Virus record (IMG/VR): IMGVR_UViG_3300018080_000200
Location: 1 to 59,557 of that record
Direction: 5' to 3' (one strand)
Source: a virus
Lineage: Duplodnaviria; Caudoviricetes
Length of the DNA stretch: 59,557 nt
In this document: piece by piece, positions 4,778 to 59,557 of the stretch
How the letters are laid out: each line of letters opens with the position of its first letter
How positions within the stretch are numbered: position 1 is the stretch's first letter
Notes under the pieces: model-generated
Database searches by the model: none
Told to the model about the DNA's origin: nothing
The model's input: only the letters and a program-made list of their open reading frames with translations
Made by a program: the position numbers and the translations under genes

Positions 4778-5041
4778 ATGAAAGTTAAGATAATCGATAT
4801 TAATACTAGTAGTAATGCGAGTATCGTTATAACATACAAGGTGTACACTGATGCTGAGGTTTATCAGTATACTGATACAATTGGGTTACATAATTTGGAA
4901 ACTTCAGACCAAAACGCTGTTTTGCTGTATATTAAAGAGGGTCTAAGTGCTCGTATTTCGCAGAAACAGGCGGAGGAAGCTTCAATATTATCCGCTACAG
5001 CAAACAGTAAAATGGATATTATGTGGGATTTAAGTGGCTGA
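4778..5041 (+). CDS. Hypothetical protein (possible fibre chaperone)
   Basis: ATG 4778 after gggga SD; lies between fibre genes. Confidence 0.55.
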   Translation: MKVKIIDINTSSNASIVITYKVYTDAEVYQYTDTIGLHNLETSDQNAVLLYIKEGLSARISQKQAEEASILSATANSKMDIMWDLSG

Positions 5042-6269
5042 TTTTGTTTCAAAGTGGCATGTTACTCCTGGGTACATGGATATTATATTACCACTACACA
5101 GTGGTGGAGTATATAATTTTACAGTTGACTACGGAGATGGTTCAGGGCCAAAGACCGTTACTGCTTACAATGATCCAAACGCAACCCATACCTATACCGT
5201 GGCAGCTCAGTACACAGTAATAATTTCAGGGACTATAATTGGGTGGACGTTTTCTGGAAATCCAACTAATGCTAGTAAATTTGACGAGATTTTACAATGG
5301 GGAGATCTTAGACTAGGAAATACTGGACGAAATTTCTATTATTGTTCAAATCTACAAGTCACCGCAGTAGACCCATTAGATTTAACTGGCACAACTACTC
5401 TTAGTGAGATGTTTAATTTTTGCTCTGGTATGACCAGCATATATGCTGAAAATTGGGATACTAGTAGTATTACTGATATGTACTCAGTGTTTTACCATTG
5501 TACCTCTCTAACATCGGTATATATTTCTTCTTGGGATGTTAGCAATGTACTCGATATGTCTTGGATGTTTATGTTTGACCTTGCTCTTTCTACTATAGAT
5601 TTATCCTCTTGGGATACGGGCAGCGTAACAAACTTTGGGGCTATGTTTGTATATTGTCTAGGTATAGCAGATTTCAGTATGTTGGAAAACTGGGATACTA
5701 GCAGTGCGACTACTATGTGGGGTATGTTTTACTATACTAGCGTGTCTAGTTTTAGTGTGGAAAATTGGGATACAAGTAATGTTACTGATATGAACAGTAT
5801 GTTTGCATACTGCAGTTATCTAGTCAGAGTTGATTTTTTACGAGATTGGGATGTAAGTAAAGTTACTAACTTTAGTACTATGTTCCAAAGTTGTACTAAT
5901 TTAGTGGAAATAGATTTGAGATATTGGGATACCAGCAGTGCTGCGAATATGAACGCTATGTTTTACTACTGTACTTCTCTGGTTGCTCCTCATTGCTACA
6001 ACTTTAGTATTAGAAATACCACAGAATTAAATCGTATGTTTTATCAGACAAATTTACGAACAAATGTATATAGTGCTATTTTGATATCCTTTGCTAAACA
6101 AGTAACAGGCATCCCTAGCACTATACAATGGATTAATGCTATTAAGTACTATTTGGGTAGAACAGCGGATGCTAGAGATTATTTAATTAATACGGTGGGG
6201 TGGAGTATTGTAGATAGTGGTGATGATGGGGTTATGCAGTCTAGTGGAAAAGTATTATGTACTGTTTAA
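5034..6269 (+). CDS. DUF285/BspA-type repeat surface protein with N-terminal PKD-like domain
   Basis: Seven W-D-[TV]-[SG]-x-[VIA]-x-x-[MF]-x-x-[MV]-F repeats of about 25 aa plus two degenerate ones; FTVDYGDGS..THTY PKD motif. Confidence 0.85.
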   Translation: MADFVSKWHVTPGYMDIILPLHSGGVYNFTVDYGDGSGPKTVTAYNDPNATHTYTVAAQYTVIISGTIIGWTFSGNPTNASKFDEILQWGDLRLGNTGRNFYYCSNLQVTAVDPLDLTGTTTLSEMFNFCSGMTSIYAENWDTSSITDMYSVFYHCTSLTSVYISSWDVSNVLDMSWMFMFDLALSTIDLSSWDTGSVTNFGAMFVYCLGIADFSMLENWDTSSATTMWGMFYYTSVSSFSVENWDTSNVTDMNSMFAYCSYLVRVDFLRDWDVSKVTNFSTMFQSCTNLVEIDLRYWDTSSAANMNAMFYYCTSLVAPHCYNFSIRNTTELNRMFYQTNLRTNVYSAILISFAKQVTGIPSTIQWINAIKYYLGRTADARDYLINTVGWSIVDSGDDGVMQSSGKVLCTV

Positions 6270-13995: not shown

Positions 13996-16900
13996 ATGGC
14001 CACACTCCCTAGAACTCTACACGATTTTCATGATACCACTGCTACACGTAAACGCATTTTCGAGAAAGTTACGGCAGCATTTCAAGATGCATTCCCTAAG
14101 AAGGGGCGGCATACTACAGTAGAAGTTTCAAATCTCAGCATTCCCTCCAAAGAATATTCTATTGCAGATCAAAAGAAGCACATTTTAGAAGGGCGCGACC
14201 TTACAGTACCCCTTAAAGGAACCCTTAAATTACGCGATAACGACTCCGGCAAAGTTATCGAAGAGAGGACACAAACTTTAGCGCAGGTTCCGTATTACAC
14301 CGGTCGTGGAACATTTATTTCTAATGGTAACGATTTTGCAACGGTAAACCAATTCCGCCTTAATCCAGGTGTTTATACTCGTTGGAAAGATAACGGTGAT
14401 TTAGAGGCACACTTCAATCTACAACATGGCTCCGGTCTGTCATTCCGTTCTTTTTTGGAGCCTAAGACAGGTGTGTTCCGTCTGAATGTTGGTCAGGCTA
14501 ACCTTAAGTTGTACCCTATTCTACGAGCTATGGGTGTGCGGCATGGGGATATAGAAAGCGCGTGGGGAAAAGATATCGCTGCTATTAACCAGCATGCAGG
14601 TAAAGATATGTCAACTGTTAAAAAACTCTATTCTAAGATAGCAGGGTGGCGGGCTAATCCGAACTTAAGCATCCCGGAGCAAGGACAAGAGATAACCAAA
14701 GAACTCGCTAAGGCGCGTATGGACCCTTCGGTCAATAGGGTTACACTTAAAGGGGACTTCGATAGGGTAACACCTAGAGTATTTCTAAAAGCTACTTCTA
14801 AATTATTGGATATCAACAAAGGGAAGGACCGTGTAGACGATAGAGACTCGGTTGCCTTCCGGCGTGTCTTTGATGTGGCGGATTATATGTCAGAGAAAGT
14901 CCGTAAAGATGCCGGTAATATCCGCAAAAAAGTTCTTTCTAAAGTAGATCGAGAACGGTCTCTAAAAGCAATAACTCCTGGAATCTTTACCAGACAGGTT
15001 AAAGGGGCGGTACTAACAGACTCAAAGATACAGCCTGTGGAAGAAGTTAACCCTGTAGAGTTATTCGATTACCAAGAGAGGATAGTTTCGTTGGGAGAAG
15101 GGGGTATTAGCTCTGTTGAAGCGGTGCCGGAAGAAGCGCGCAATGTGCATCCTTCCCAGCTAAACAGTATAGACCCAGTACGCGGCCCTGAGTCGATGAC
15201 TGTAGGGGTAGATGTTAGAGCAGCTTATAATACATTTAAGGGTGATGACGGTCGTCTTTATAGCAGTGTTTTAAACAAGAGAGGCCAGCGAACTCTTATC
15301 CCAGCTGATAAACTTGCTAGGGCAGTAGTAGCCTTCCCAGGGCAGTATGGGAAGCGGGGTAGTGGAATAAAGGTTATCGATAAAAAAGGAACCTTACGGG
15401 ATGCTTCTGATAAAGAGGTGGAGTATTGGCTACCCCACGGACAGGGAATGTTTAGCCATGTAGCCAACTTAATCCCTGGTATTGGGTCAACAGAAGGACG
15501 TCGTCTTCTGATGGGGTCTAAATTTCAAACTCAAGCGCTACCCTTAGAAACTCCCGAGCATCCTATTGTAATGAATAAGGTTCCAGGTACAGATATACCA
15601 TTTGAGAGACTTATAGGTATGAAAATTGGTGGCCGTCCTGCGAAAGTGGGTGGCAGAGTAACTAAAGTTACGCCAAATGATATATACATAAAGGGGGCTG
15701 ATGGCAAATCAGTTCGCCATGGTGTTTATAATAACTTCTCTTTTAATAGGAAGTCTTACATACACCAAACACCGATAGTGAAACCGGGAGACGTTGTGCG
15801 TAGAGGGCAGCCGTTAGCTAAAAGTACGTTTACAGACAAAGAGGGGAACTTAGCCCTTGGACGTAACTTGGTAACAGCGTACATGCCCTTTAAGGGATAC
15901 TCTGTAGAGGATGGGATTGTTGTTAGCGAGTCCGCCAGTAAGAAGCTTACTACGGATCTTATGTATTCCGTTAACCAGCCGGTTGATAAAGAGGTAGAAC
16001 TAGGTAAAAGTAAGTATGTTACTGGTATGCCGACGACTTTCACTAAACCCCAGCTAGCCAACTTGGATAATGAGGGTGTGATTAAACCTGGCACCACTAT
16101 CAAAAAAGGCGATCCTATTATTTTAGCCCTCCATAAGCGTCCTCTTTCTGCTACTGATATAGTGCTAGGGAAGTTGCACAAGAGTCTGCGAAACTTCTAC
16201 AGTGATAAATCACATGTTTGGGATCACGACACTGATGGAACAGTTACCGACGTGGCTAAGACAAAGAAGGGCTACAAGGTTACCATTAAAACGAAGAGTC
16301 CTCTTGTTGAATCTGATAAGATAGCCAATAGGTTCGGGGGGAAGGGTGTTATTGGAAAGATCCTTCCCGATGATCAAATGCCTGTAATAGAATCAATGGG
16401 TAAGCGTGTAGAGGTACTTCTGAATCCTCTAGGAGTCCCCAGTCGAATTAACCCTATGCAGGTCTTTGAAACCTTATTAGGAAAGGTTTCAGAGAAAACA
16501 GGAAAGCCTTATTTAGTAGAACCGTTTTCTGACGAATCCAGGGTAGATTTTGTGAAACGCGAGCTTAAAAAGCATGGGGTATCAGAACAAGAGTGGTTGG
16601 TAGACCCCTCTACTGGAAAGCGGTACAAGAATCCTATTTTGGTAGGTAAACAATTCTTTACCAAATCTTTTAAAACTAGTGAGTCTGGGTTTTCTGCTAG
16701 AGAGCTTGGGAGCTACACTGCTGAGGAGCGACCGGCCAAGGGTGGAAAAGAGGGGGCTAAGAAGATTGGTGGAATGCTTATTAGCGCACTACTCGCCCAT
16801 GGGGCTACAAACAATTTACGAGAGATGTCTACTATTAAGGGAACTAAAAATAGGGAGTTCTGGAAGGCCATGCGGCTAGGCTTGCCTCTACCCTCTCCTG

Positions 16901-18363
16901 AAGTTCCTTTTATTTATAAGAAGTTTGAAGCTTACCTTAAAGGTGCTGGCGCCAACGTAGAAAAGTTTGGCCACGATACTAGAATACAACCTTTAACTCA
17001 ACAGGGTGTGGATGCCATTGCGGGGTTGCCAGTTAAAAACGATAGGCTGTTAAAGGCCAAAGACCTTTCTCCTGAGAAGGGAGGACTTTTTGATTTCGCT
17101 ATTACTGGCGGACCTTCCGGACAGCGATGGTCCCACATTCCATTAGTTGAGCCAATGCCCAATCCAGCTATGGAAGAGCCCATCCGTAGAATGTTAGGGC
17201 TAACCCAAAAGAAATACGAGTCTATTTTATCCGGAAAAGAGCAGTTTGAGGGGGCCACTGGCCCTAAGGCTATAGCGAATGGTTTGAAAGCGCTAAACAT
17301 AGACACGGAGTTTAATAGGGCTAAGGCTGAAATTAAGAGTGGTAAACGGAGTATCCGTGATGATGCCGTGAAAAGGCTTCAATACCATACTATGTTTAAG
17401 AAGACGGGTATCAAGCCTGCTGACTTAGTACTCGATAAATGGCCTGTGCTGCCGCCTCAGTTTAGGCCTATTGCAGTATCTGGAGCGGGGAATACGGTAG
17501 TTGTCTCTTCTCCCAATCTTCTTTATAAAGATTTAATACAGGCCAACTCTACTTTAGGTGACCTTAAGAAGGATCTTCTAGAAGAGGACACTACAGAGGA
17601 AAGACTGGGGCTTTATAAGGCACTAAAAGCAGTAGCAGGGTTGGGCGATCCTATAAATATTAAAACTAAAAGAAAGCGTGCTAAAGGGTTTATTAAAGAT
17701 ATTATTGGGGATATCCCAAAAAGCGGGCTGTTTCAGTCCAAAGTTCTTGGAAAGACACAGGATTTAGTTGCTAGAGCAGTAGCCATGCCAGATCCGGCCT
17801 TGAATATGGACCAAATAGGGGTACCCAAGGATGCCCTATGGAAGATGTTTAAGCCTTTTGTTATGAGACGCCTAGTGCAAAGAGGCATACCTGCTTTAGC
17901 CGCTGCGGATGCTATTGAAAATAGAACTCCGCAAGCTCAGGAGGCCCTGGAGAGAGAGATTAAGGAACGGCCGGTTATGATGGATCGTGCCCCGGCCCTA
18001 CATAAATTTAATATGATGGCAGGGTACGCAGTTCCTAGGAATGATACCAGTTTAGGGTTCCCTGTTAGTACTGCGCCAGGCTATAATGCTGATTTTGATG
18101 GAGACCAGTTGAATCTGCACGTACCTGTTACAGAGGAGGCTAAAGAAGAGGCGGTAAAGAAATTGCTTCCCAGTACCAACCTGTTCTCTATTAAAACCCA
18201 CGGAGTTCATTTTGTACCTCAGCACGAGGCGGGATTAGGGCTATATTTTGCGAGTAAGACTCCAAATAAGACCGCTGTAAAGAAGTTTAGTACGCAGGAG
18301 GAAGCCATACAGGCTTACCGCGATGGAACTATAAAGTTAAACGATCCTATAGAAGTGGGGTGA
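13996..18363 (+). CDS. rpoBC: Multisubunit RNA polymerase, beta subunit fused to the N-terminal part of beta'
   Basis: beta motifs GTFISNG, EARNVHPS..GPES, RLLMGSKFQTQA, GNLALGRN..FKGYSVEDGIVVSE, DKIANRFGGKGV, NPLGVPSRIN; beta' motifs PVLPPQFRP, GLFQSKVLGK, RAPALH and catalytic NADFDGD (18085-18105). Confidence 0.97.
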   Translation: MATLPRTLHDFHDTTATRKRIFEKVTAAFQDAFPKKGRHTTVEVSNLSIPSKEYSIADQKKHILEGRDLTVPLKGTLKLRDNDSGKVIEERTQTLAQVPYYTGRGTFISNGNDFATVNQFRLNPGVYTRWKDNGDLEAHFNLQHGSGLSFRSFLEPKTGVFRLNVGQANLKLYPILRAMGVRHGDIESAWGKDIAAINQHAGKDMSTVKKLYSKIAGWRANPNLSIPEQGQEITKELAKARMDPSVNRVTLKGDFDRVTPRVFLKATSKLLDINKGKDRVDDRDSVAFRRVFDVADYMSEKVRKDAGNIRKKVLSKVDRERSLKAITPGIFTRQVKGAVLTDSKIQPVEEVNPVELFDYQERIVSLGEGGISSVEAVPEEARNVHPSQLNSIDPVRGPESMTVGVDVRAAYNTFKGDDGRLYSSVLNKRGQRTLIPADKLARAVVAFPGQYGKRGSGIKVIDKKGTLRDASDKEVEYWLPHGQGMFSHVANLIPGIGSTEGRRLLMGSKFQTQALPLETPEHPIVMNKVPGTDIPFERLIGMKIGGRPAKVGGRVTKVTPNDIYIKGADGKSVRHGVYNNFSFNRKSYIHQTPIVKPGDVVRRGQPLAKSTFTDKEGNLALGRNLVTAYMPFKGYSVEDGIVVSESASKKLTTDLMYSVNQPVDKEVELGKSKYVTGMPTTFTKPQLANLDNEGVIKPGTTIKKGDPIILALHKRPLSATDIVLGKLHKSLRNFYSDKSHVWDHDTDGTVTDVAKTKKGYKVTIKTKSPLVESDKIANRFGGKGVIGKILPDDQMPVIESMGKRVEVLLNPLGVPSRINPMQVFETLLGKVSEKTGKPYLVEPFSDESRVDFVKRELKKHGVSEQEWLVDPSTGKRYKNPILVGKQFFTKSFKTSESGFSARELGSYTAEERPAKGGKEGAKKIGGMLISALLAHGATNNLREMSTIKGTKNREFWKAMRLGLPLPSPEVPFIYKKFEAYLKGAGANVEKFGHDTRIQPLTQQGVDAIAGLPVKNDRLLKAKDLSPEKGGLFDFAITGGPSGQRWSHIPLVEPMPNPAMEEPIRRMLGLTQKKYESILSGKEQFEGATGPKAIANGLKALNIDTEFNRAKAEIKSGKRSIRDDAVKRLQYHTMFKKTGIKPADLVLDKWPVLPPQFRPIAVSGAGNTVVVSSPNLLYKDLIQANSTLGDLKKDLLEEDTTEERLGLYKALKAVAGLGDPINIKTKRKRAKGFIKDIIGDIPKSGLFQSKVLGKTQDLVARAVAMPDPALNMDQIGVPKDALWKMFKPFVMRRLVQRGIPALAAADAIENRTPQAQEALEREIKERPVMMDRAPALHKFNMMAGYAVPRNDTSLGFPVSTAPGYNADFDGDQLNLHVPVTEEAKEEAVKKLLPSTNLFSIKTHGVHFVPQHEAGLGLYFASKTPNKTAVKKFSTQEEAIQAYRDGTIKLNDPIEVG

Positions 18364-18366
18364 TCC

Positions 18367-18765
18367 ATGTCCTTTAATTGGGATTTAATGAAGAAAATAG
18401 CTAGTAATTTACAGAAGCAAGGGTTTATACCTGGCAACCAAATACCTAGCCAGCCAATGATGGGTATGGACCCCAGTATGATGGGAGGTGGGATGCCTCC
18501 TATGGACCCCAGTATGATGGGAGGCGAAGTTCCGCCAGAAGGGGCTCCTCCAGCGGAAGAGTCTCCGAAAGAAGAGGAAGGGGCTTCAAAATACGAGGTT
18601 CTAGAGACTCGTATGAGTGCTTTAGAACAACGTTTTAATGATTTAAGTAACTATTTACTAAAAGGGAGTCAGCCAAGTGCTAAGACGGCCGAAGCTAATA
18701 AAGACCCTACATCTGACTTGGTTATTCCCGAATTACAAAAGATATTATTGAGGAGTGAACAATGA
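18367..18765 (+). CDS. M/G/P-rich KxA-leader protein
   Basis: KKIAS, QKQGF, MDPSMMGG x2, C-terminal coiled segment. Confidence 0.7.
   Translation: MSFNWDLMKKIASNLQKQGFIPGNQIPSQPMMGMDPSMMGGGMPPMDPSMMGGEVPPEGAPPAEESPKEEEGASKYEVLETRMSALEQRFNDLSNYLLKGSQPSAKTAEANKDPTSDLVIPELQKILLRSEQ
18465..18524 (+). repeat. 24-bp direct repeat, 36-bp period
   Basis: tatggaccccagtatgatgggagg at 18465-18488 and 18501-18524. Confidence 0.9.
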
Positions 18766-19379
18766 GGAGATGTTTAATCGTAGCGGTTATATTTCCGTTA
18801 CTGCTTGGCTGTACAAGCGTGAAACACGCGTTTGTTGACTTTGGTACCAATTACGTGGAGCAAGAAGTTCCACCTATCGTGACGAAGCTTCTTAAAGAAG
18901 AGCTGGCAGAGTGGAAGATCGTCTCATTTATAAAAGACCTTAGGGCTGAAAATCCGGTGTGGGCCGACTATTTAGAGAACCTTTTGAAACAACTAAGCGC
19001 TAAGGCCAAAGAACGGTTGATCGCACAATATGAAACATTTAAGACAGCGGCTACAAAAGATCTTGAAGGTACTGGATCTGCTTTTGAAGATTTTGATATC
19101 GATAAGAACGGGCAGATTTCTTTCAATGAATTAATCCGTCTATGTGATGCCCTTGGGGATAAAGAGAAAACCTGTGTGAGAGACGGCATACAATATTTAC
19201 TCTTGCGGTACGGCATGATGTTCTTCGGCGAACCAATAAAGGATAATTTATTGGATTACCTAGCTGCCCCCACTGAGACCACTAAAGGACTTCCAAAGCA
19301 GAAAACGGATAAAGAAACCGTAGAGTATTTTGTGAAACTTCTTAAAGCAATGGATGAGGATAGTAAACCTAAAAAATGA
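18762..19379 (+). CDS. Lipoprotein with an EF-hand loop
   Basis: MRRCLIVAVIFPLLLG|C lipobox; DIDKNGQISFNE canonical 12-residue EF-hand. Confidence 0.75.
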   Translation: MRRCLIVAVIFPLLLGCTSVKHAFVDFGTNYVEQEVPPIVTKLLKEELAEWKIVSFIKDLRAENPVWADYLENLLKQLSAKAKERLIAQYETFKTAATKDLEGTGSAFEDFDIDKNGQISFNELIRLCDALGDKEKTCVRDGIQYLLLRYGMMFFGEPIKDNLLDYLAAPTETTKGLPKQKTDKETVEYFVKLLKAMDEDSKPKK

Positions 19380-21232
19380 GTAAGAAAACTACTGTAGGGC
19401 GCTTATTATTAGAGAAAGCTATACCTGGTGAGTTCAAGTCTTCTTTATTGAAAATGGAGAATGCTACCAAGGGGGATCTACGCAGTTTCTTCCAGCATGT
19501 TGCTGACACTAAACCGGAGGCGTATAAGGGTGTCTTACAGCAGTTAAAGGATTTAGGGGATGACATTGCCACTACGGAAGGCTCTAGCTTTTCACTTTTA
19601 GATTTTACCCCTCCATTTAATAAAAAGGAAGTTTTAAAGCCTTTATTGAGTAAAATCAACAAAATAAGGAGTAGTTCTAAGCCGTTAGAGGAGCAGGAAG
19701 CGGAAGTAGGTAACTTACTCCAGGGTGCTTCTGGGAAGATCAGGGGTCTAACGCTAGAGTCGGCTCTAAAAAGGGGAGACGTCATCTCGCAAATGGTTGC
19801 CACCGGCACTAGAGGCAAACCTGCTCAGTTGAATATGATGGTAGGCTCTCCGTTAATGTTTACTGATCACCATAATAGACCTATCACTGTCCCCGTCATT
19901 AGTTCGTACTCGGAAGGATTAAAACCTTACGAGTACTGGACTGCTAGTTACGGTGCTCGTAAGGGTGTTATCTCCGAAAAGCTCTCTCTAAGAGATGCTG
20001 GGTATATGGGGAAACAGTTAGTGAGAGTGGCTAATACTCTTCTTGTTACAGCCGATGATTGCGGAGTCCAGAATGGTATTATGGAGTCAACCTCAGGATC
20101 GGATGCTGTTGGGCGTTACTTAGCTAGGTCTGAGGGAGGATACCCGAGAAATACTTTAGTTACTGCTGAAGTATTGTCTGGTTTAGTGAAGCGTGGAGTT
20201 AAGTCGGTTATGGTGCGGTCCCCTCTAACCTGTGAAGCTACGAACGGTATCTGTAAGTACTGCTCTGGTCAAAATGAAAAGAGTAAACTACCGGAATTAG
20301 GAGAAAATGTAGGAATAAACGCAGCGCATTCGATGAGTGAACCTTTGATGCAAATGACTCTGAATGTAAAACATTCTGGAGGTGTAGCCGGTGGCGGTGG
20401 GGTTGGCGGTTTTAAGCTACTAAAACAGTTGACCACTATACCAAAAAACTTTACGCATGGTTCCATACTTTCTGAGAAAGCGGGTACTGTTGAGAAGGTA
20501 GTAGAGGCCCCGCAGGGAGGGCACTATATAACAGTTGGAGAGCAAAAGCATTACTCCCCTCCCCTATTGACTGTTATTAAAAAAGTTGGAGATTCCGTCG
20601 AACAAGGGGATCAACTTACAGATGGGATAGTCAATCCTTCCGATGTGACTAGATTAAAGGGTGTTGGGGCTGGTCGGCTATACTGGGCCCGGGCAATGGA
20701 AAAGGTTATGCGGGATAATGGGGTAAAACTGTGGAAGCCTAATTACGAGATTATAGCTAAAGGCTTAGTGAATCACGTTAGAGTAGAAGATCCAGAGGGA
20801 CTAGGGGACAGTTTACCCGATGATGTTATAGAGTACTCGGCGAATGCCAATTCATTGATTCCTCAGAGTGCATTAGTTACCAATAATGTTAGACAAACCT
20901 TAGGGCAATACCTTGGGCAGAATGTATTGCATTATACTATTGGGACTAAGATAACTCCTAGCGTTATGAGGGACATCCAACGCGCCAAAATACAAGATGT
21001 AAAAGTAACAAATACTCCCCCTAGTGTTACTCCAGTGATGCTACGTAGTGCAGATGTTCCGCAAGCAAAAAAAGATTGGCAAGCGCAATTAGGGGCAACA
21101 AATTTAAAAAGAAATTTACTAAAGGCTATCTCTCGTGGTATGATAAGTAAGAGGCACGGGCTTCATCCTGAACCAGCTTTAGCGTACGGGTTGGAATTCG
21201 GTAAGCCAGTAGCTGGAAAAATAGGGTACTAG
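19376..21232 (+). CDS. rpoC: Multisubunit RNA polymerase beta' C-terminal part
   Basis: GTRG, bridge helix EGLKPYEYWTASYGARKG..DAGYMGKQL, DDCG, RSPLTC..GICKYC zinc site, trigger loop GINAAHSMSEPLMQMTLNVKHSGG. Confidence 0.95.
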   Translation: MSKKTTVGRLLLEKAIPGEFKSSLLKMENATKGDLRSFFQHVADTKPEAYKGVLQQLKDLGDDIATTEGSSFSLLDFTPPFNKKEVLKPLLSKINKIRSSSKPLEEQEAEVGNLLQGASGKIRGLTLESALKRGDVISQMVATGTRGKPAQLNMMVGSPLMFTDHHNRPITVPVISSYSEGLKPYEYWTASYGARKGVISEKLSLRDAGYMGKQLVRVANTLLVTADDCGVQNGIMESTSGSDAVGRYLARSEGGYPRNTLVTAEVLSGLVKRGVKSVMVRSPLTCEATNGICKYCSGQNEKSKLPELGENVGINAAHSMSEPLMQMTLNVKHSGGVAGGGGVGGFKLLKQLTTIPKNFTHGSILSEKAGTVEKVVEAPQGGHYITVGEQKHYSPPLLTVIKKVGDSVEQGDQLTDGIVNPSDVTRLKGVGAGRLYWARAMEKVMRDNGVKLWKPNYEIIAKGLVNHVRVEDPEGLGDSLPDDVIEYSANANSLIPQSALVTNNVRQTLGQYLGQNVLHYTIGTKITPSVMRDIQRAKIQDVKVTNTPPSVTPVMLRSADVPQAKKDWQAQLGATNLKRNLLKAISRGMISKRHGLHPEPALAYGLEFGKPVAGKIGY

Positions 21233-21233
21233 T

Positions 21234-23441
21234 ATGAATGAAGATTTTCAAGTTGCCTTTAGTGATATGGCTTACAGTAGGTTGCAGGGAGAGGCGCAAC
21301 CACTACTGCCATACTTGCTAGGGTTTGAGGTTGTGGATAAAAACGACAGTAACACGCAAGCTGTGGGCATATTTATATTCCAAATATATGATCTACACTT
21401 ATATGTCCCTGTATTCTTTATTAATGGTGAGGTAAAGCCTGTCATTCTATTGTATTTACCTAAGCAAGATCTTTTCGTTCCTTTGACGCCAGAGTATATT
21501 AGGCATATATTGAAACGGGCGACAATGAAATTCGGGGAGGGTGTCTCTAAGGAGGAGTCTGAAGTATTTGCTCGTCCTTCTCTAGAACGCCTCATACTTC
21601 CACCTAGAACTGGTAAATATGCTTCTATAAAAGGTACCCCTAGTGATATCTTTGTTAGAATGCTCTACTCTGGATGGCAGTTAGAACCTAATGTGCTGCA
21701 CAAGGCCGGTCAGGCGTACCCTCTTCCTATCGTTCGGACCTTCGCTGAAGATACCGACCTTATTAAAGTCGCAGACAAGCTGGGAATAATGGATAGCATT
21801 TTAGCATTAGTTAGTAATGCCCCCATTATTTACAAAGAAGCTACCAAAATAGAGGATTCGAAAGTCCGGGTAGTTGAAGAAGGCGACGATGACTTCATTA
21901 CCGAGGTTAGAAAATCTAAGGTTAATAAGAAGAAGGCCATTCGTAAACGTTTTGTAGTAACCGATGACGGCGACAACACAGTTCAACTTTATGACACTCA
22001 ATACACGGAAAAGATACAGAATCCCAATTCTAACGGAGTGTACCTTTTAATAGCAGCCGATGGTTCGCTCGTACCTGTGATTGTTATAATGTCTCCAAAA
22101 GACTGCAACACTATGCATGGGAGTACTCATACATTAGTTTATAGCTGGGAAGACGATCAGTATGCTATCCGTCCGGCAGAGAGGATTTGGGTAACTTCTA
22201 GTTATAAGGTCGATAACCTTGACAAGGTTATGAAACAAGGCGTAGAAGTAGACAAGGTTAAAGTAGGCAAAATGTATTTTTTAATGTGCCCTTCAGCTAT
22301 GATGTTTACTTCAGGGCATGCCTCTGAACCTTTTTTAGTTAAGAATAAGGTTACAACTACTGATGGTACTGTCTATTTGTCCGTTAAACCTTGCTACTAT
22401 AACGATGATTGGATCTCTAAACCCAGTGAAGGGTTAAACAGAGAGCAGTCTGACGGTATGACCGGATTCTTGGGCGAGGACCGTAGAGGTCAATCTTCGG
22501 AGACTTATTCTGAAGACGATGAGTACAAAGGGGGGCCGCGTCTTCTCGCTAAGATTTATATGACGGATTCCGATAGCAGGGACCTGACTCAAATAGGAAC
22601 TGGGTTAGCGGTCCCTAAACACTATCGCTTCTTTGAACTTACCGGGGAATGTGGTAGTTGCGGTTCATTACAAATTGGAGATCCTGGAACTTTAAATACT
22701 GCTATTCGTTTTAAACGTGGGTACAAGATGCTTAAGGTTCGCTCTGACGGGGCTGAGTATTTTACAAGTTTAGACGAGGCCCCTTGGAAGAAGTTTAATA
22801 AAGAGGCTGCTCTAGCCCAGCATTTGGTAGGACTTGGATTGAATACCCAGTCTATAGAGAGAATACTGGAGGACGTAGGGGCATGCTTACAGCATAAGTA
22901 TATGGTTAAATCTTCACAGTACAATCAAATGGACCCCACGTTGATGACCGATCCTACTTATTCTGCTGCATTCACACAGATACCAGAAGAAAGAATCTTT
23001 CCCGCGACAACGGAGCCTCCTCTTAACCCGCCGAGGCCTATGGGCGAAGGTGAGAATCTTTACCTGGGTCCTAGAGGAGTGCCTGGGGTATTAGGCCAAG
23101 CACCCGCTAACCCAGTAGGAGCGATGAAGGGGCTTGAGGCACTGGGGGATGATCAGCTGTTTGAGCACGGTATGCTTGCAGCGATTGCGTCTACCAGCGA
23201 TACTCTAGGGATGGTCAGTTCTTTTATACCTACTCTTAATGCGGCTGTTGATAAGTTAGCTAGAATTATTTTCTTATTTTGGTATAAGGCAGAAGACTTC
23301 CAAGATCTATTTCAAATAACGGAATATAATACCCAAGAGGATATGCTGGTACAAACGTTTAAGAATCTTGGTACTTTAGTCCTATCTTTTCAGAAAAAAG
23401 CTGCACCAGATAATGTGGAGTTAGAGCTTCATGGAAGTTGA
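21234..23441 (+). CDS. Large hypothetical virion protein (putative inner head/core)
   Basis: 735 aa; multiple KxA sites; P/G-rich linker before helical C-terminus. Confidence 0.7.
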   Translation: MNEDFQVAFSDMAYSRLQGEAQPLLPYLLGFEVVDKNDSNTQAVGIFIFQIYDLHLYVPVFFINGEVKPVILLYLPKQDLFVPLTPEYIRHILKRATMKFGEGVSKEESEVFARPSLERLILPPRTGKYASIKGTPSDIFVRMLYSGWQLEPNVLHKAGQAYPLPIVRTFAEDTDLIKVADKLGIMDSILALVSNAPIIYKEATKIEDSKVRVVEEGDDDFITEVRKSKVNKKKAIRKRFVVTDDGDNTVQLYDTQYTEKIQNPNSNGVYLLIAADGSLVPVIVIMSPKDCNTMHGSTHTLVYSWEDDQYAIRPAERIWVTSSYKVDNLDKVMKQGVEVDKVKVGKMYFLMCPSAMMFTSGHASEPFLVKNKVTTTDGTVYLSVKPCYYNDDWISKPSEGLNREQSDGMTGFLGEDRRGQSSETYSEDDEYKGGPRLLAKIYMTDSDSRDLTQIGTGLAVPKHYRFFELTGECGSCGSLQIGDPGTLNTAIRFKRGYKMLKVRSDGAEYFTSLDEAPWKKFNKEAALAQHLVGLGLNTQSIERILEDVGACLQHKYMVKSSQYNQMDPTLMTDPTYSAAFTQIPEERIFPATTEPPLNPPRPMGEGENLYLGPRGVPGVLGQAPANPVGAMKGLEALGDDQLFEHGMLAAIASTSDTLGMVSSFIPTLNAAVDKLARIIFLFWYKAEDFQDLFQITEYNTQEDMLVQTFKNLGTLVLSFQKKAAPDNVELELHGS

Positions 23442-26037: not shown

Positions 26038-26198
26038 GTATTATCAAAATCATAGACATTTCTGTGCCGATGTTTCGTTTGCCAGCAAATTATGAAAATG
26101 TTCTTGAGATTCTTTCTAAAGATGTGGTACAATCTGAAGATACACAAACAGCAGAAGCAGTAAAACATGATAACAAAGATTATAAGCAACAGCTTTAA
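26034..26198 (+). CDS. Small ORF not in the ORF track (54 aa)
   Basis: ATGA overlap with the upstream stop; MSIIKIIDISVPMFRLPANYENVLEILSKD... fills the gap. Confidence 0.45.
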   Translation: MSIIKIIDISVPMFRLPANYENVLEILSKDVVQSEDTQTAEAVKHDNKDYKQQL

Positions 26199-27483
26199 CT
26201 TCGGAGAAGCCACCATACAAACTATACCTATGGTTAAGGCCGCCAGTCCTAACTATGGGGAGTTCGGGGCATTTATAGAGAGTCTAAAGCCTGAGCCAGG
26301 TCATACTAAACTTCTGATGTTGGCTCTTGGGGCTGGGGAGACATATGGGTGTAACAGGAACGGAGATTACTTCCCGGAGTTAGCCTTAGTAGAGCATCAC
26401 AAAACTTTTGAAGAATTCGGCCATAACTATAAACATCATATTAACAAAGACCCTAATCGTAGTTACGGTAAAGTAGTAAAATCATACTGGAACCCCAGAA
26501 TGAAGCGGGTCGAGTTAATAGTTGATGTTGATAATTCGAAGGCACCAGACATACTTGTTAGAGTAGACGCCGGTGAGTTGATACCAGTCTCCATGGCTTG
26601 TAAAGTCCCATATGATATTTGCTCTATTTGTGACAACCGCGCTAAGACTATTGATAATTATTGCGACCATTTAAAGAATCATATGGGGGAGATACTGCCC
26701 GGTGGTAAGCAAGTATACGCCGTTAATACCAAGCCTGTATTTTTCGATATCAGCTATGTTATCAAACCAGCAGACAGGACAGCATATGTTTTGCAAAAAG
26801 TCGCAACAGCTTCTGAGGCTACACAAGCCCTTCCTAATAAGAAGGATATCTTTCTAAAATCCGCCCTACTTAGAAAGCTGTCCGCAATAGAGAAGAACCT
26901 TTTAAACTACGGTACGGATGTTACCGATACAATTTCTAAAACACTTCCTGAAGAATCTATTTCGGATGAAATATTAGATCAGTTAAAGAAATATCCTAAA
27001 GAAGTAGCGCTAGGCAGTCTAGCTAAAAATGGAATAATACTCTCTCTGTCCGATTTCTTGAAACTTCTCCTTCCCCAGACAAGAATTGCGGACGATACCC
27101 TTGATGAAGTCCGGCCGTGCGTGTCATTCAGTAGTTTAAATGAGGACGATTTAGGTTTGCCTGAGTTACTACGGCCGGCTTCTCTTTTTTCGGATATAGA
27201 ATCGCTAATAGGTAAATTAAAGGACCGGTTTTCGCTGTTACCAGAGCAGGCTGGAAGACGGGCCTTACAGATTTCGTTTAGTTCTCCGCCTAAGATTAGA
27301 CTTCGTATATTCCCTGGCGGTATGTCAGTAGGCTCTAGTAGGAGCAGCGGAGGCATGACTATAAAGAAGTCGGCTGCCCAACAGTTGGCTGACGTCTATT
27401 CTCTTTATAAGTTATCTGGTACGGCGCTGTGCCCAGGCCAAAATGATAATTTATTTCTATCACTAGTTGTCTCACAGAGGTAA
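26167..27483 (+). CDS. Putative prohead maturation protease with Cys/His zinc-binding insert
   Basis: NRNGDYFP, HHINKD..SYGKV, VSMACKVPYDICSIC..YCDH, FFDISYVIKPAD; sits upstream of scaffold and MCP. Confidence 0.75.
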   Translation: MITKIISNSFNFGEATIQTIPMVKAASPNYGEFGAFIESLKPEPGHTKLLMLALGAGETYGCNRNGDYFPELALVEHHKTFEEFGHNYKHHINKDPNRSYGKVVKSYWNPRMKRVELIVDVDNSKAPDILVRVDAGELIPVSMACKVPYDICSICDNRAKTIDNYCDHLKNHMGEILPGGKQVYAVNTKPVFFDISYVIKPADRTAYVLQKVATASEATQALPNKKDIFLKSALLRKLSAIEKNLLNYGTDVTDTISKTLPEESISDEILDQLKKYPKEVALGSLAKNGIILSLSDFLKLLLPQTRIADDTLDEVRPCVSFSSLNEDDLGLPELLRPASLFSDIESLIGKLKDRFSLLPEQAGRRALQISFSSPPKIRLRIFPGGMSVGSSRSSGGMTIKKSAAQQLADVYSLYKLSGTALCPGQNDNLFLSLVVSQR

Positions 27484-46959: not shown

Positions 46960-48570
46960 ATGCGAACAACGTTTACCCCAGTAGTAGTAGATATAGAAAT
47001 AACTCGAGAGGGAACTACCTTATTCGATTCTTCTTCCGGTACAAAAGCTATATACGTAGCAGAAGTACAAATTTCTAATAGACTTAATAATATTCCTGAG
47101 GCAATTATTGGTATAGGGTTTAGGAACAGAGATGCCCATAAGCAAATACTTAGTATCTTTCCCCAAACTGGCAAGGGGGCTATGTTTGCTAAAGTAGATA
47201 TTACTGTTCGTGGGTTTAGGACAAAAAGGTCTGCTATAACTGAGCCTCATAATATCTTCTCGGGCTACGTAACAGGGTATGGGATATCAAAGAGTTCTAA
47301 GGCAGGAACTCAATATACAATAAACGCTAGAGGGGGTTTATACCTACTTAGCCAGACTCCTATCGCTACTATAGGATTCCACCCAGCTAGTCCTTTTGCT
47401 TGGGGAGTATTTAAACTTAGCTCGATGGGCTCGGATAACACGAATATGGCACCCGGTCAATTACTGGGAGTTGTGGATGTTAGGGATACTGCTTGGCAAA
47501 TATTCTCTCGTATGTTCTCTAGATTCACTGAGGTTATGACTAAATCTAACGCGACTGTTAATTCTGCATTAGGCAATGAATGGCATACAAGGGCTTTCCG
47601 TGCTGCGCAAGAAGCTTTTAAATTAACAGAGGGACAACAGCAGTTTCTAAAAGATGAAATAGCACTAGTAACAGAGTTAGATAACCTTGTACTTCCGTGG
47701 GAGGGAGATCGGGCTGCTGTACACGCCTTTCTTTATAGAGCCTTCACAGATTATCAAGCCACGTTCTGGCACCTCATTATAGAGTTATGCCAGCACTTCG
47801 GGGTTGTAATAATTTCAGTAGGAAATAAAGTATATATTTCAGCATTAACCCCTCTCGACACTTCAGGGATTAACTATTTAGCAGCGGAAGAGACTACATC
47901 TATCGAAGTATCCGACTTCCCGTTTAGCGTACCCACTAGAGTTCTACTAACTGCTCCAAAATATAACAGTTCTGTCTCTGCGGGGCAAATAGACGGTGAT
48001 CCTTTCATATTATACCCCCCAGAGAGTAAATTAACTGAACAAGAGAAAAAAACTGGGGTTAAAACCCTGCTATTTCAAGCCCCGGGGGTAGTCGGAAAAT
48101 TAACTAGTGAAATTAAAATAAAGGCGTATAATGATATAAAACTCCACAAAGAGGTAAGTAGAGATAAAAATAAGCAGTCGGTACAGTCTATGAAGGATGC
48201 TATTGCTAATTTAGATAAACCTAAACTTGGTGAAACCTACGCCGCGTATGTGCTGATGGCTAAAAAGTTTGAACAGCGTTTGGGAACTGTGTTAAGCAGA
48301 TATCGCCCTGATATTATTCCAGGATTTGGAGGTGTTGTCGTAATCGGAGATAACCTAAATATGCTTGGGTACGTAACCGAAGTGACACACAGCCTCAGCG
48401 CTACATCACAAACAGCATTGACTCAAACATTATTCTCTCATGTCCACTACGCGAGTGAATTGACTAATCCGGAGATTATCAAGAATCCCCTATACCCTAG
48501 CTTCGACACGCAGGCTTCTGCTACCAAAATACTCACAGATGTAGGATTCTTGGGAGTGGTGCCCTCATGA
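46960..48570 (+). CDS. Putative baseplate hub protein (gp27-like)
   Basis: IFSGYVTG..YTINARG N-terminus; RPDIIPG..GYVTEVTHSL C-terminus. Confidence 0.6.
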   Translation: MRTTFTPVVVDIEITREGTTLFDSSSGTKAIYVAEVQISNRLNNIPEAIIGIGFRNRDAHKQILSIFPQTGKGAMFAKVDITVRGFRTKRSAITEPHNIFSGYVTGYGISKSSKAGTQYTINARGGLYLLSQTPIATIGFHPASPFAWGVFKLSSMGSDNTNMAPGQLLGVVDVRDTAWQIFSRMFSRFTEVMTKSNATVNSALGNEWHTRAFRAAQEAFKLTEGQQQFLKDEIALVTELDNLVLPWEGDRAAVHAFLYRAFTDYQATFWHLIIELCQHFGVVIISVGNKVYISALTPLDTSGINYLAAEETTSIEVSDFPFSVPTRVLLTAPKYNSSVSAGQIDGDPFILYPPESKLTEQEKKTGVKTLLFQAPGVVGKLTSEIKIKAYNDIKLHKEVSRDKNKQSVQSMKDAIANLDKPKLGETYAAYVLMAKKFEQRLGTVLSRYRPDIIPGFGGVVVIGDNLNMLGYVTEVTHSLSATSQTALTQTLFSHVHYASELTNPEIIKNPLYPSFDTQASATKILTDVGFLGVVPS

Positions 48571-49574
48571 TACAAAATGGGATTACTTTTGGTGATAAGT
48601 TTGAGGGTGGGTACGACATTCTCCAGGGATTGGAAAAAGTTGGGATTTGCCTACTGGCTGCAAAAGACTCTTCCGTGGTGATTGTCAAAAAGGCAGCTAT
48701 ACCAGATAGACTACTAGTACCGGGATTAATACAGCAGGTATGCTGTTTGTATGGCCCCGATAGTGTTTATGTAGACGGTGTTCCGTTGCCATCAACCGTT
48801 ATCTCATCAAAAGGATTAGAGAAAACTGCTTCGGGGTTTTGGTTAAATGTACAAGGGACCTTTGAAAAACTGTCTGCTACCTCTAAAGAGCAAATGGTGT
48901 ATGCTTACGGTGACTGGAAATCTTCTCCGACTAAGAAGAACATGGCGTATGTCCTTAGAACTTTAAACCCAGTCATTAATAGAGAGTTACACACCTACAA
49001 GGGTACTATCCCAGAAACGGTACTACGAGGTATGGCGAAAAAGATAGCCATAGCCTCTGTAAAGAACTATAACCCTAACAGGGGAGCCGCACTTAGTACC
49101 CACTTGGTACACCAGCTGCAGCAACTACACCGAAAGAACTACGAATCCTTTAGTACAGCACGTCTTCCAGAGCACTTACAGCGCGGAGTTGGGGGTTTCT
49201 TACGCGCTAAGAGCTATCTTAGAGACACACTTGGTAGAGAACCAACCGTAGCCGAATTGGCAGACGAAATGAACTGGGGTGTTAAAAACGTAGCACAAAT
49301 TCAGAGACGACTGCGAAATGAGGTAGGTGATAAAGTACTAGAGTTCGACCCCATCCACTCCTCTGAAAGCGAGGAGGATGCTCGGGTAGACTACTTCTAT
49401 AATGATTTGAACCCTCAAGATAAGATTATTTTTGAGCACACCACTCGTTACGGAGGAGCGGAGATACTCCCCAAGAAGGCTATCGCCACAAAACTAAGTA
49501 TTTCCCCTGCAAGGGTGACGCAAAGAGCTAATAATATAGCAAAGAAGTTTAAGGCGGTGTTTAGACAAGGATGA
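48567..49574 (+). CDS. sigma70-family RNA polymerase sigma factor (FliA/SigB-like) with N-terminal extension
   Basis: Region 2 YNPNRGAALSTH, RLPEH; region 3 LGREPTVAELADEM; region 4 LNPQDKII..IATKLSISPARVTQ. Confidence 0.88.
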   Translation: MIQNGITFGDKFEGGYDILQGLEKVGICLLAAKDSSVVIVKKAAIPDRLLVPGLIQQVCCLYGPDSVYVDGVPLPSTVISSKGLEKTASGFWLNVQGTFEKLSATSKEQMVYAYGDWKSSPTKKNMAYVLRTLNPVINRELHTYKGTIPETVLRGMAKKIAIASVKNYNPNRGAALSTHLVHQLQQLHRKNYESFSTARLPEHLQRGVGGFLRAKSYLRDTLGREPTVAELADEMNWGVKNVAQIQRRLRNEVGDKVLEFDPIHSSESEEDARVDYFYNDLNPQDKIIFEHTTRYGGAEILPKKAIATKLSISPARVTQRANNIAKKFKAVFRQG

Positions 49575-58669: not shown

Positions 58670-58873
58670 GAAGAAGGCCTTTTTAGAGGGGTTCCGAGAA
58701 GAGTTTGAGAAGAACGCTGGGAAGCTTTATGAAATAGCAAGCTTTCTAGAGGACCTAAACTCAGTAGTTCCGGCAATACTAGGTGGTGGAGTTGGAGCAG
58801 CAGAACTATTGCGCTCGAAACCGAAAACTCCAGCCGATGTATTAAGAGCCTCAGGTATTGGTCTAGGAACAGG

Positions 58874-59436: not shown

Positions 59437-59557
59437 AGAACTACCTAGCAAACTAAATAATGAATGATTATGTATGTTTATGAATAAAGAATTCATTTTT
59501 GTAGAATCACTAGTACCGTGGGCTACACGGGATTTTCAAGCCTGTGGACATGGAAGC
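59437..59557 (+). mobile_element. Left part of the 209-bp element (copy 2)
   Basis: Matches 58874-58994 with two substitutions; preceded by GG at 59435-59436. Confidence 0.75.

Follow-up and report, generated by a model that had tools for sequence, protein, structure and literature searches.

The window, the whole 59,557-nt stretch of viral DNA analysed here (IMG/VR record IMGVR_UViG_3300018080_000200), carries at positions 13996-21232 four ORFs on one strand, and the locus is confirmed as a cellular-type RNA polymerase (RNAP) with shifted subunit boundaries (Table 1). The catalytic NADFDGD motif, the beta barrel lysines, the bridge helix, the second zinc site and the trigger loop of bacterial core RNAP are all present, distributed over two chains whose genes are separated by two small ORFs. 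An earlier note on this DNA had described a 1455-aa chain that passes from beta into beta' and includes NADFDGD, with the bridge helix, second zinc site and trigger loop on a separate 618-aa gene two ORFs downstream; Pfam matches, PDB matches and motif positions agree with this description.

Table 1. Features of the polymerase locus, its downstream neighbour and the sigma gene (window coordinates).
Feature	Position (nt)	Strand	Description or basis
Chain 1, fused	13996..18363	+	1455 aa; RNAP beta, residues 1 to ~991, in frame with beta' N-terminal half, ~1005-1455
Rifampicin-pocket segment of beta	15049..15096	+	Alignment to solved beta chains
Beta double-psi barrel block	16312..16350	+	Conserved D774, K775, K783; invariant columns in the 18-sequence alignment A1
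Beta to beta' junction, short linker	16969..17010	+	Between last beta block and first beta' block
Beta' start without N-terminal zinc-finger domain	17080..17180	+	Alignment of 11 phage forms and 4 bacterial beta'
NADFDGD catalytic Mg-binding motif	18085..18105	+	Chain 1 residues 1364-1370
132-aa protein	18367..18765	+	Pro/Met/Gly-rich repeats and helical segment; short member of ~240-aa family
205-aa protein	18762..19379	+	Lipoprotein-like N-terminus (lipobox by reading of the sequence) and one EF-hand
Chain 2, beta' C-terminal half	19376..21232	+	618 aa; Pfam Rpb1_5, PDB beta' matches, motif positions
Bridge helix, chain 2	19928..20032	+	Motif mapping
Four-Cys zinc site, chain 2	20054..20269	+	Cysteines 229, 286, 293, 296, the chain's only four
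Trigger-loop N-helix, chain 2	20321..20383	+	Motif mapping
735-aa protein	21234..23441	+	Conserved neighbour downstream of beta' C-half; homolog of Arash Gp218
Sigma-70-family factor	48567..49574	+	Pfam Sigma70_r3 (E 9.6e-7); PHROG 351 sigma factor; alignment A2

In chain 1, Pfam Rpb2_6 (beta) covers residues 553-912 (E 9.4e-55) and Rpb1_2 (beta') residues 1252-1387 (E 1.8e-22), with a further beta' match, Rpb1_1, at residues 1122-1201 (E 3e-7, under the Pfam curated cut-off). PDB matches assign residues 260-994 to beta and 1057-1455 to beta'. The final beta-like block stops at residue 991 (nt 16968); GGLFD, which opens beta', begins at residue 1029 (nt 17080). These limits place the junction at about nt 16969-17010, within the interval of about 16860-17040 first proposed, and it is colinear across all phage forms aligned. 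The clamp helices and NADFDGD barrel of beta' belong to chain 1, and D1366, D1368, G1369 and D1370 are invariant in alignment A1. Chain 2 matches Pfam Rpb1_5 at residues 181-366 (E 4.2e-24), and its residues 3-487 correspond to M. tuberculosis beta' 659-1166; a PDB search gave no match for residues ~490-618.

The beta' N-terminal zinc-finger domain is deleted in 11/11 phage forms aligned, the four-cysteine stretch of ~32 residues and the segment that follows being exchanged for a short, conserved, Cys-free stretch. Residues 1014-1038 of chain 1 weakly match B. subtilis beta' 29-53, after which the match resumes at beta' 141. The whole of chain 1 contains zero cysteines. Its residues E349, Y359 and V364 align with positions 516, 526 and 531 of E. 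coli beta (numbered against solved beta chains, with query residue 46 at E. coli beta 513), positions known to govern rifampicin sensitivity. Since the phage pocket residues are those that give resistance in bacteria, the enzyme is predicted to be insensitive to rifampicin.

Between the two polymerase genes, the 132-aa ORF has no Pfam or PHROG match; in 34 related loci the fused gene is followed by a member of a ~240-aa family, whose 34-member HMM matches this ORF (E 1.3e-10). The 205-aa ORF matches Pfam EF-hand_1 (E 2.9e-6; 26.9 bits vs a cut-off of 25.4), finds no phmmer match among 362 gap ORFs of relatives, and probably entered the locus as an accessory gene. Downstream, the 735-aa protein has tblastn matches in 51/81 loci, ~40 of them full length, with no Pfam or PHROG match and an uninformative predicted fold. 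For the genes directly upstream of the fused gene, no homologs were detected beside the polymerase in relatives, and the conserved gene context is confined to the downstream side.

Orthologs in the particles of Salmonella phage Arash

The same layout is found in cultured phages. Salmonella phage Arash (gp206, 1525 aa) and Vibrio phage D69 (VPHD69_0261, 1527 aa) each encode a fused chain with a separate beta' C-half downstream. Chain 1 aligns by tblastn to the Arash genome (OQ632216) in one piece over residues 5-1455 (34.1% identity), gp206 being a single CDS. Arash also shares with the window an orthologous sigma factor, an orthologous downstream “structural protein” and the lack of alpha and omega. 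Between window and Arash, the fused chains share 34% identity, and the beta' C-halves and the sigma factors 28% each; across Arash and Vibrio phages D69, D148 and D181 identity is 33–34% for the fused chain and 28–31% for the C-half. In Arash, however, 4.8 kb separates the two genes, the interval holds genes on the opposite strand and the C-half is followed by a helicase gene; in Arash and the Vibrio phages the upstream neighbours are not those of the window. The records of these phages name the polymerase genes “subunit beta” or “hypothetical”; neither “fusion” nor “fused” appears in the Arash paper (PMC10585845).

LC-MS of Arash particles, as reported, detected the fused chain, Gp206, more than any other protein (128 unique peptides; 3516 spectra vs 1333 for the major capsid protein), and also found the beta' C-half Gp216 (40 unique peptides, 1210 spectra), the “structural protein” Gp218 (36 peptides, 1149 spectra) and the sigma factor Gp10 (24 unique peptides, 467 spectra; PMC10585845). 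The virion packaging proposed in the earlier note is supported through orthology with these particle proteins. On this footing, the reading that we favour, and regard as probable, is that the window RNAP is a virion-delivered, alpha-less, sigma-dependent polymerase.

An unlikely alternative is that the enzyme acts outside the virion on middle and late genes, that the host RNAP reads the early genes, and that its detection in Arash particles reflects carry-over. The authors themselves allow for carry-over of abundant infection proteins, and their list of 116 particle proteins includes metabolic enzymes, among them ribonucleotide reductases and ligases (PMC10585845); yet the spectral count of Gp206 exceeds that of every other Arash protein, and both the neighbour Gp218 and the sigma Gp10 accompany it in the list. 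Gene position also speaks against carry-over: in Arash the polymerase genes are surrounded by portal, head and further particle-detected genes, and in the window they lie directly upstream of the head module. The distance of the orthologs counts against the favoured reading, as virion placement of the window enzyme would be carried over from proteins of the low identities given above. The alternative is favoured by the second Arash sigma, gp196 (Sigma70_r2, E 1.1e-11): “Gp196” occurs 0 times in the text of the Arash paper, particle list included (PMC10585845), so not all of the Arash transcription machinery appears to be packed.

Alpha, omega and sigma

The alpha and omega Pfam HMMs (PF01000, PF01193, PF01192) matched 0/5 records, namely the window and four complete relatives, and matched 14/14 control genomes. 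As the window represents only ~31% of its genome (CheckV figure), its own negative result carries little weight; the 4/4 negative complete relatives extend the initial statement that no alpha or omega is recognisable. A very divergent substitute for alpha or omega, or use of host alpha, is compatible with this Pfam-HMM result.

Assembly of the phage chains on a host alpha dimer, perhaps with host omega, would yield a hybrid enzyme, which we consider quite improbable. An alpha-type platform is common to all cellular RNAPs, but the alpha-free RNAPs of jumbo phages are reported to be active (PMC7598289), and in the window enzyme the covalent beta-beta' link offers an alternative means of holding the halves together. 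That HMM searches of the window and the four complete relatives found no phage alpha, and that beta and beta' of the phage resemble the bacterial subunits far more than phiKZ-type subunits do, would suit a hybrid. A virion-delivered enzyme, however, would need host alpha carried from the previous cell, and the portion of the Arash particle account covered here names no host proteins (PMC10585845).

Each of the five records holds one PF00623-bearing ORF, although a second, very divergent polymerase could escape this search. The conserved sigma family is likewise represented by one ortholog per record (5/5). The window sigma is an ortholog of Arash gp10 (28% identity over 218 aa, E 2.8e-26); its conserved core spans ~nt 48840-49574, and the first ~100 residues have no counterpart in relatives. 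A complex of the phage sigma with the beta' N-half was predicted with a score of 0.37 (runs 0.45, 0.36 and 0.37) vs 0.12 for the best control, with partner pLDDT of at least 65 and at least 38% of contacts agreeing between runs. The mark used for such predictions is reached by 58/80 solved complexes and 2/110 mismatched pairs, but at scores up to 0.60 by only 7/80 solved complexes and by both mismatches. Sigma and beta' are a textbook pair and the prediction ran on author-built alignments, so the pass may reflect likeness only; the predicted complex lends weak support to a sigma-dependent enzyme.

Conservation, phylogeny and related polymerases

The fusion of beta to the beta' N-half is a single open frame in 81/81 related loci, Arash among them, and is therefore no sequencing accident; Vibrio phages D69, D148 and D181 give equivalent matches. 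The beta' C-half follows downstream on the same strand in 61/81 loci, in the same frame in only two of these, so that beta' is split in 59/61. Among the matches listed, 119/120 database relatives hold Rpb2_6 and Rpb1_2 in one protein of about 1450–2450 aa, the exception (P0005) duplicating the window sequence in truncated form. Relatives are encoded at no fewer than 495 IMG/VR loci. We conclude that the two-chain layout is the norm for this clade, a clade trait and not chance.

In a sister clade, beta-beta' is one continuous chain of ~2000 aa, with which the split point is colinear residue for residue. A beta' tree (68 rows: 35 phage forms and 33 bacterial beta'; 1017 columns) places a branch of ~1.1 changes per site (SH-aLRT 100) between phage forms and bacterial beta', and groups the 22 split forms in one clan (support 97) and the 13 continuous forms in another (support 87). 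With eight archaeal A' sequences as outgroup, the phage clan has a support of 100. This clan test sampled cells narrowly (33–36 bacterial and 8 archaeal rows) and contained no mReC sequence. The branch joining the 36 bacterial rows has a support of only 50, and these trees leave the phage clan unplaced with respect to the bacterial root, so a deep origin and fast evolution are not separable in them.

Nesting of the phage sequences inside a bacterial clade, the outcome that the phylogeny could have returned, was not observed, and recent capture of a bacterial rpoB-rpoC, or bacterial contamination of the contig, is highly improbable. The top PDB matches are bacterial beta and beta', but identity to bacterial beta' is only 26–33%, the phage forms make up one clan on a long branch, and the contig also bears head, sheath and baseplate genes. 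Related contigs have been binned into bacterial MAGs; these hosts span unrelated taxa and include no isolate genome, a pattern consistent with mis-binning of phage contigs. An artefact of assembly or of a frameshift, conceivable for a metagenome contig whose “terminal repeat” is doubtful, is refuted by a fusion and a split conserved across the related loci, with three independently sequenced cultured phage genomes included.

The lineage called mReC (multimeric-RNAP-encoding Caudovirales; Weinheimer and Aylward 2020, PMC7481178) is likewise described as metagenomic tailed phages, some >200 kb, in which beta and beta' are found by cellular HMMs, carry NADxDGD, form a clan apart from cellular RNAPs and are encoded among hallmark structural genes. 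Its subunits were recognised by a length of at least 800 aa, a match to each COG and the motif (PMC7481178); by Pfam models, used here in place of the paper's COG models, the fused chain alone would count as both subunits. mReC capsid proteins were found in 8/97 contigs and are of Gp23 type, PF07068 (PMC7481178); a PF03237 terminase is a further trait of the lineage. Our PF07068 search matched 0/5 records and no control either, and the capsid candidate of the window has no Pfam match. A search started from a contig with a neighbouring metagenome id yielded no contig of the sample named for mReC. The RNAP results and methods of the mReC paper make no mention of fusion, split, alpha or virions (PMC7481178), and the layout of a fusion plus a split is undescribed there as it is in the published text on Arash. 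The window RNAP is an added member of a published, biochemically uncharacterised lineage that is Arash-like and probably mReC.

RNAPs of phiKZ/AR9 type are also phage-encoded two-barrel enzymes without alpha or omega (PMC7598289, PMC7824862), with beta' split directly after the catalytic barrel and a virion-packed form (PMC7598289). As reported, however, their beta is in two or three chains separate from beta' (PMC7598289, PMC7824862), their genomes carry two enzyme sets and they have no sigma homolog, whereas the window beta is intact and fused, and Arash-like phages have one detectable set and a conserved sigma-70-family factor. Their sequences are also far more divergent, and the distinction from phiKZ-type RNAPs drawn at the outset stands.

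The break in beta' falls directly past the catalytic barrel, near the split site of jumbo phages and of cyanobacteria. In cyanobacterial and plastid RNAP (gamma and beta' from rpoC1 and rpoC2) the break occupies the same stretch between domains: gamma of cyanobacteria (8h3v_E) matches the last part of chain 1, and residue 10 of beta' (8h3v_B) aligns with chain 2 residue 32, the phage break being ~20–25 residues earlier. Cyanobacteria differ in having a separate beta as well as alpha and omega. Helicobacter and Wolbachia rpoBC are natural bacterial fusions of beta and beta'. These and the bacterial-type fused proteins P0205, P0209 and P0240 also join beta to beta' in one chain, but they retain all of beta' and every bacterial domain, and in the tree they fall with bacterial beta'; their origin is independent of the phage clade. 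Compared with bacterial core RNAP (two alpha, beta, beta' and omega), the phage form is without alpha, omega and the beta' N-terminal zinc finger. The RNAPs of crAss-like phages (gp66) and of P23-45 (fused to the tape measure) are reported as particle-packed enzymes with covalently linked barrels that transcribe the first genes, but they are without most beta/beta' domains and any sigma; crAssphage RNAP is described as too divergent for detection by cellular HMMs (PMC7481178).

A proposed virion-delivered holoenzyme

In the reading that we favour, two chains would form the catalytic core in place of the bacterial set of beta, beta', omega and two alpha. Through its covalent beta-beta' link, chain 1 most likely does some of the assembly work of the alpha dimer; the core would assemble without host alpha, and promoter recognition is most likely supplied by the phage sigma. 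By orthology with Arash, core and sigma would be late products that are packed into the virion and enter the cell along with the DNA, where they begin phage transcription. As each genome has a single detectable core, this core is probably in use throughout the cycle. The two-chain layout may have arisen by fission of a single-chain beta-beta' ancestor past the beta' barrel, with other genes now in the gap; fission, not re-fusion, is the most parsimonious direction, parsimony being its sole basis.

Taken jointly, these proposals depict an alpha- and omega-free, zinc-finger-less, rifampicin-insensitive, packed and injected sigma-70-type holoenzyme that is the phage's only polymerase from first to last gene, and whose single-chain beta-beta' ancestor was later cut. 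We put forward this full combination tentatively, as a real possibility that falls short of probable. If true, this would be the first phage-encoded multisubunit RNAP still working with sigma, and the cut would mark a permissive site at which cyanobacteria and phiKZ-like phages have, independently, also split beta'.

Anatomy and conservation of a fused and split RNA polymerase

Every long ORF of the window is on the + strand, and the polymerase is encoded by two of them (see table). The earlier note had described one 1455-aa chain in which beta runs directly into beta' and which includes NADFDGD, with the bridge helix, second zinc site and trigger loop on a separate 618-aa gene; each checked detail of this observation was correct. 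Pfam matches on the long (fused) chain are Rpb2_6 (residues 553-912, E 9.4e-55), Rpb1_2 (residues 1252-1387, E 1.8e-22) and, below the curated cut-off, Rpb1_1 (residues 1122-1201, E 3e-7). Alignment to solved structures places residues 260-994 on bacterial beta (e.g. B. subtilis beta 369-1148) and residues 1057-1455 on beta' (E. coli 147-548). The junction, put by the note at about 16860-17040, lies within that interval. The short chain (C-half) matches Rpb1_5 (E 4.2e-24), its residues 3-487 align with M. tuberculosis beta' 659-1166, and it carries the bridge helix, four cysteines and the trigger-loop helix.

Polymerase, virion and neighbouring genes of the window
Feature	Coordinates (nt)	Strand	Remark
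Fused chain ORF	13996-18363	+	1455 aa
Beta/beta' junction	about 16969-17010	+	on fused chain
NADFDGD motif	18085-18105	+	on fused chain
First gap ORF	18367-18765	+	132 aa
Second gap ORF	18762-19379	+	205 aa
Beta' C-half ORF	19376-21232	+	618 aa
735-aa ORF	21234-23441	+	directly downstream of C-half; homologs in 51/81 loci
Prohead-protease-like protein	26167-27483		downstream of polymerase genes
Major head protein	29747-30679		downstream of polymerase genes
Tail sheath	35080-38487		downstream of polymerase genes
Sigma	48567-49574	+	Sigma70_r3 E 9.6e-7; PHROG 351
Baseplate wedge	50367-51884		downstream of polymerase genes

The fused chain contains no cysteine and the short chain exactly four, which together make up the second zinc site of beta'. 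In 11/11 aligned phage forms the beta' N-terminal zinc-finger domain is deleted along with the segment that follows, and a short conserved Cys-free stretch replaces the region; the 4/4 bacterial beta' of the same alignment keep the domain. In at least one relative, the IMG/VR locus L004, the zinc-site region of the C-half has gained an insertion and lost all four cysteines, so part of the clade can do without even the second zinc site. D774, K775 and K783 of the beta barrel and the three beta' aspartates are invariant among 18 aligned clade members. The rifampicin pocket has Glu, Tyr and Val at the positions that correspond to E. coli beta 516, 526 and 531. Substitutions at the last two are classical causes of rifampicin resistance, and the phage enzyme is therefore predicted to be insensitive to the drug.

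A protein database search returned 533 matches among 8000 scored candidates. Rpb2_6 and Rpb1_2 occurred in one protein in 119 of the 120 matches listed, the sole exception being a truncated copy identical to the window. Scanning IMG/VR with a single protein as query gave no match; an alignment-based scan found relatives at at least 495 loci. The best 80 of these, together with the cultured Salmonella phage Arash (OQ632216), made up a set of 81 loci. A single open frame spans the fused match in 81/81. In 61/81 the C-half follows on the same strand, and many of the remaining 20 contigs end too early. The gap between the polymerase genes measures 0.55-1.1 kb in 32 of 59 split loci (1012 nt in the window). 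At two of the 61 loci (L068 and L080) the C-half is in frame with the fused part, giving one chain of 2034 or 2159 aa, and a search for longer short-chain relatives found more continuous chains of about 1850-2800 aa (e.g. P0136, P0139, P0141 and P0143). The break in the window is colinear with the continuous chains, with 0 residues lost, and stands directly before a conserved TTVGR block. We conclude that the fused/split layout is a clade character. The clade has cultured members on Salmonella and Vibrio, in whose genomes these genes are labelled 'subunit beta' or 'hypothetical protein'.

Insertions occur in the polymerase genes of some relatives. In Vibrio phages D181 and D148 (OZ196140, OZ196545) the fused-gene match comes in two pieces over 5.4 kb, with an annotated homing endonuclease beneath it; in D69 the match is continuous over 4.5 kb. 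Some isolates seem to have the fused gene interrupted by a mobile element. Precomputed Pfam annotations list inteins and LAGLIDADG or Hint domains (PF14528, PF14890, PF01079) in the polymerase genes of P0011, P0014, P0016, P0063, P0125-P0134 and other relatives, PF01551 in several continuous forms and, as single cases, a SET domain (PF00856) in P0011 and an acetyltransferase domain (PF00583) in P0014.

The gap holds small genes. A Pro-, Ala-, Met- and Gly-rich protein of ~240 aa follows the fused gene in 34 loci, and one of ~80 aa precedes the C-half in 33. The first gap ORF of the window is a short member of the ~240-aa family (HMM E 1.3e-10). An HMM search of the window for the ~80-aa family gave no match; in its place stands an EF-hand protein (the second gap ORF) with a lipoprotein-like N-terminal signal and with no counterpart within the gaps of 59 relatives, possibly the product of an accessory gene inserted at the fission site. 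Homologs of the 735-aa protein, among them Arash Gp218, mostly occupy the same position as in the window. Pfam and PHROG gave no match for this protein and its AlphaFold model is poor (mean pLDDT 61, pTM 0.34); Foldseek found 0 PDB matches at E<=0.001 (best E 0.019, TM <0.1) and the ESM Atlas no usable feature match (TM <=0.33). HMMs built from the ten upstream-gene families most common in relatives had no match in the window, and upstream synteny is therefore unusable.

Subunit inventory, sigma factors and probable virion packaging

The window is a fragment (31% complete by CheckV), and the searches therefore also covered four complete relatives: the 180,819-bp Arash genome and, from IMG/VR, three genomes of 203-208 kb with a completeness rating of 100%. 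Pfam HMMs for alpha (PF01000, PF01193) and omega (PF01192) matched in 0 of these 5 records and in 14/14 control genomes; the apparent lack of both subunits, noticed earlier in the window, extends to the complete relatives. The ~240-aa gap family was considered as a hidden alpha and rejected, being mostly Pro/Ala/Met/Gly low-complexity sequence with one helical core. Each of the five records has one ORF with the beta' catalytic domain. The sigma family found in the window likewise has one member per record, matched in the relatives at E 2e-32 to 9e-39.

The window sigma is orthologous to Arash gp10. Its first ~100 residues (48567-48870, +) have no counterpart in the four closest relatives (~240 aa), and either are an added domain or lie before the true start, which would then be an internal Met at about residue 110. 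When the sigma core was modelled together with the beta' N-half, the predicted complex scored 0.37, against 0.12 for the best control (partner pLDDT >=65, contact agreement >=38%); this weakly suggests binding and may reflect likeness alone, the two being a textbook pair. Arash has a second sigma, gp196 (OQ632216 120656-121693, Sigma70_r2 E 1.1e-11), close to its portal and polymerase genes. 'Gp196' has 0 occurrences in the text of PMC10585845, and the protein is not named in the particle list; it may serve promoters of a later class.

The earlier note had proposed a virion-packaged polymerase. In Arash the portal gene is followed by the fused gene. LC-MS of purified Arash particles detected the fused chain Gp206 (128 unique peptides and 3516 spectra, the highest spectral count of all proteins), together with the C-half Gp216 (40 and 1210), Gp218 (36 and 1149) and the sigma Gp10 (24 and 467), in a list of 116 proteins for which the authors allow carry-over of abundant enzymes (PMC10585845). 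Given these counts and this caveat, packaging is likely across the clade, and by orthology we infer it for the window's phage.

Several features of the contigs are described here. IMG/VR marks the window with a 'direct terminal repeat'. Bases 2-123 recur at 58961-59082, which is not the extreme end, and the last 800 bases (58769-59557) hold repeats with a 563-nt period (58872-58994 equals 59435-59557). We rejected the label as a sign of a complete 59.5-kb genome; it probably reflects this repeat array at one end and not genome ends. A 411-aa ORF (5034-6269, +) contains four copies of a 45-nt repeat (5448-5963) encoding an NWDTS...M..MF-type unit, presumably a BspA/DUF285-type leucine-rich repeat, and matches PHROGs without assigned function (best phrog_3649, E 2.8e-33). 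Fused-polymerase contigs (L089-L108) had been assigned to MAGs named for a wide range of unrelated taxa (Gemmataceae, Thermoguttaceae, Aquaspirillum, Treponema, Desulfovibrio, Nanopelagicales and others) and to 0 isolate genomes. This fits mis-binned lytic-phage contigs and, given the spread of taxa, the MAGs indicate no host.

Phylogeny and probable order of events

A tree of beta' equivalents (68 rows, 1017 columns; IQ-TREE quick search, LG+G4, SH-aLRT) places 35 phage rows and 33 bacterial rows, three bacterial-type fused proteins counted among the latter, on opposite sides of a branch with a length of about 1.1 changes per site and support 100. A beta' N-half tree rooted on eight archaeal A' sequences (79 rows, 399 columns, LG+C20+F+G4) recovers the phage clan too, with support 100 and a stem length of 0.97. 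We looked for nesting inside a bacterial clade; the phage forms stand apart on a long branch in both trees, and recent capture of the polymerase genes is therefore rejected. In the rooted tree the branch joining the 36 bacterial rows is supported at only 50, so the phage clan may lie outside all bacteria or inside them. Branching before the bacterial radiation is argued for in PMC7481178, which described multimeric-RNAP-encoding Caudovirales (mReC) from metagenomes. From these alignments, the clan would be either such a pre-bacterial branch or a lineage that evolved fast from within bacteria.

Within the beta' tree, 22 split forms make one clan (97) and 13 continuous forms another (87). Inside the split clan the window groups with 10 other rows (100), and its terminal branch is rather long (0.74). 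Both phage clans have the covalent link from beta to the beta' N-half. From a bacterial-like start, fusion followed by fission counts two events and the reverse order three, which makes fission of a single-chain ancestor the more parsimonious course.

Relation to known polymerases

The window enzyme belongs with Arash-like phages and is probably part of the mReC lineage, which the earlier note had named; the fused chain alone would suffice for detection as mReC (PMC7481178). The available texts of the mReC and Arash papers (PMC7481178, PMC10585845) mention neither fusion, split nor alpha. A scan that took as its seed a 207-kb contig from a neighbouring metagenome gave 4 loci, 0 of them from the mReC paper's named sample, and a Gp23 capsid search of the five records, without a working control, gave 0 matches.

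The enzyme differs from those of the jumbo phages phiKZ and AR9 by an intact beta, a covalent beta-beta' link, one set per genome and a sigma, and resembles them in its beta' cut site and lack of alpha and omega. The cut after the beta' barrel falls in the same stretch as in cyanobacterial gamma/beta' and jumbo-phage beta' (PMC7598289), about 20-25 residues earlier than the cyanobacterial one in PDB alignments. As in bacterial RNAP, there are a sigma, clamp helices and most beta and beta' domains; unlike it, the enzyme lacks alpha, omega and the beta' zinc finger. Its place is intermediate between the bacterial enzyme and the highly divergent RNAPs of phiKZ type. Overall, the earlier note's interpretation is supported.

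In the openly accessible main texts searched, we found no biochemical or structural study and no layout description of this lineage's RNAP. The window is a new member of a published, poorly described lineage. The following appear not to have been published: the exact layout of the subunits, the single-chain sister clade, the missing beta' zinc finger, the presence of one core per genome and the conserved sigma detected in particles. The lineage is large, as the at least 495 IMG/VR loci attest. Its two chains plus sigma offer a tractable enzyme for the old question of how a multisubunit RNAP can be assembled and start transcription when the alpha platform is missing. The split and continuous sister clades allow a natural comparison of the states before and after gene fission, at a site cut repeatedly in evolution.
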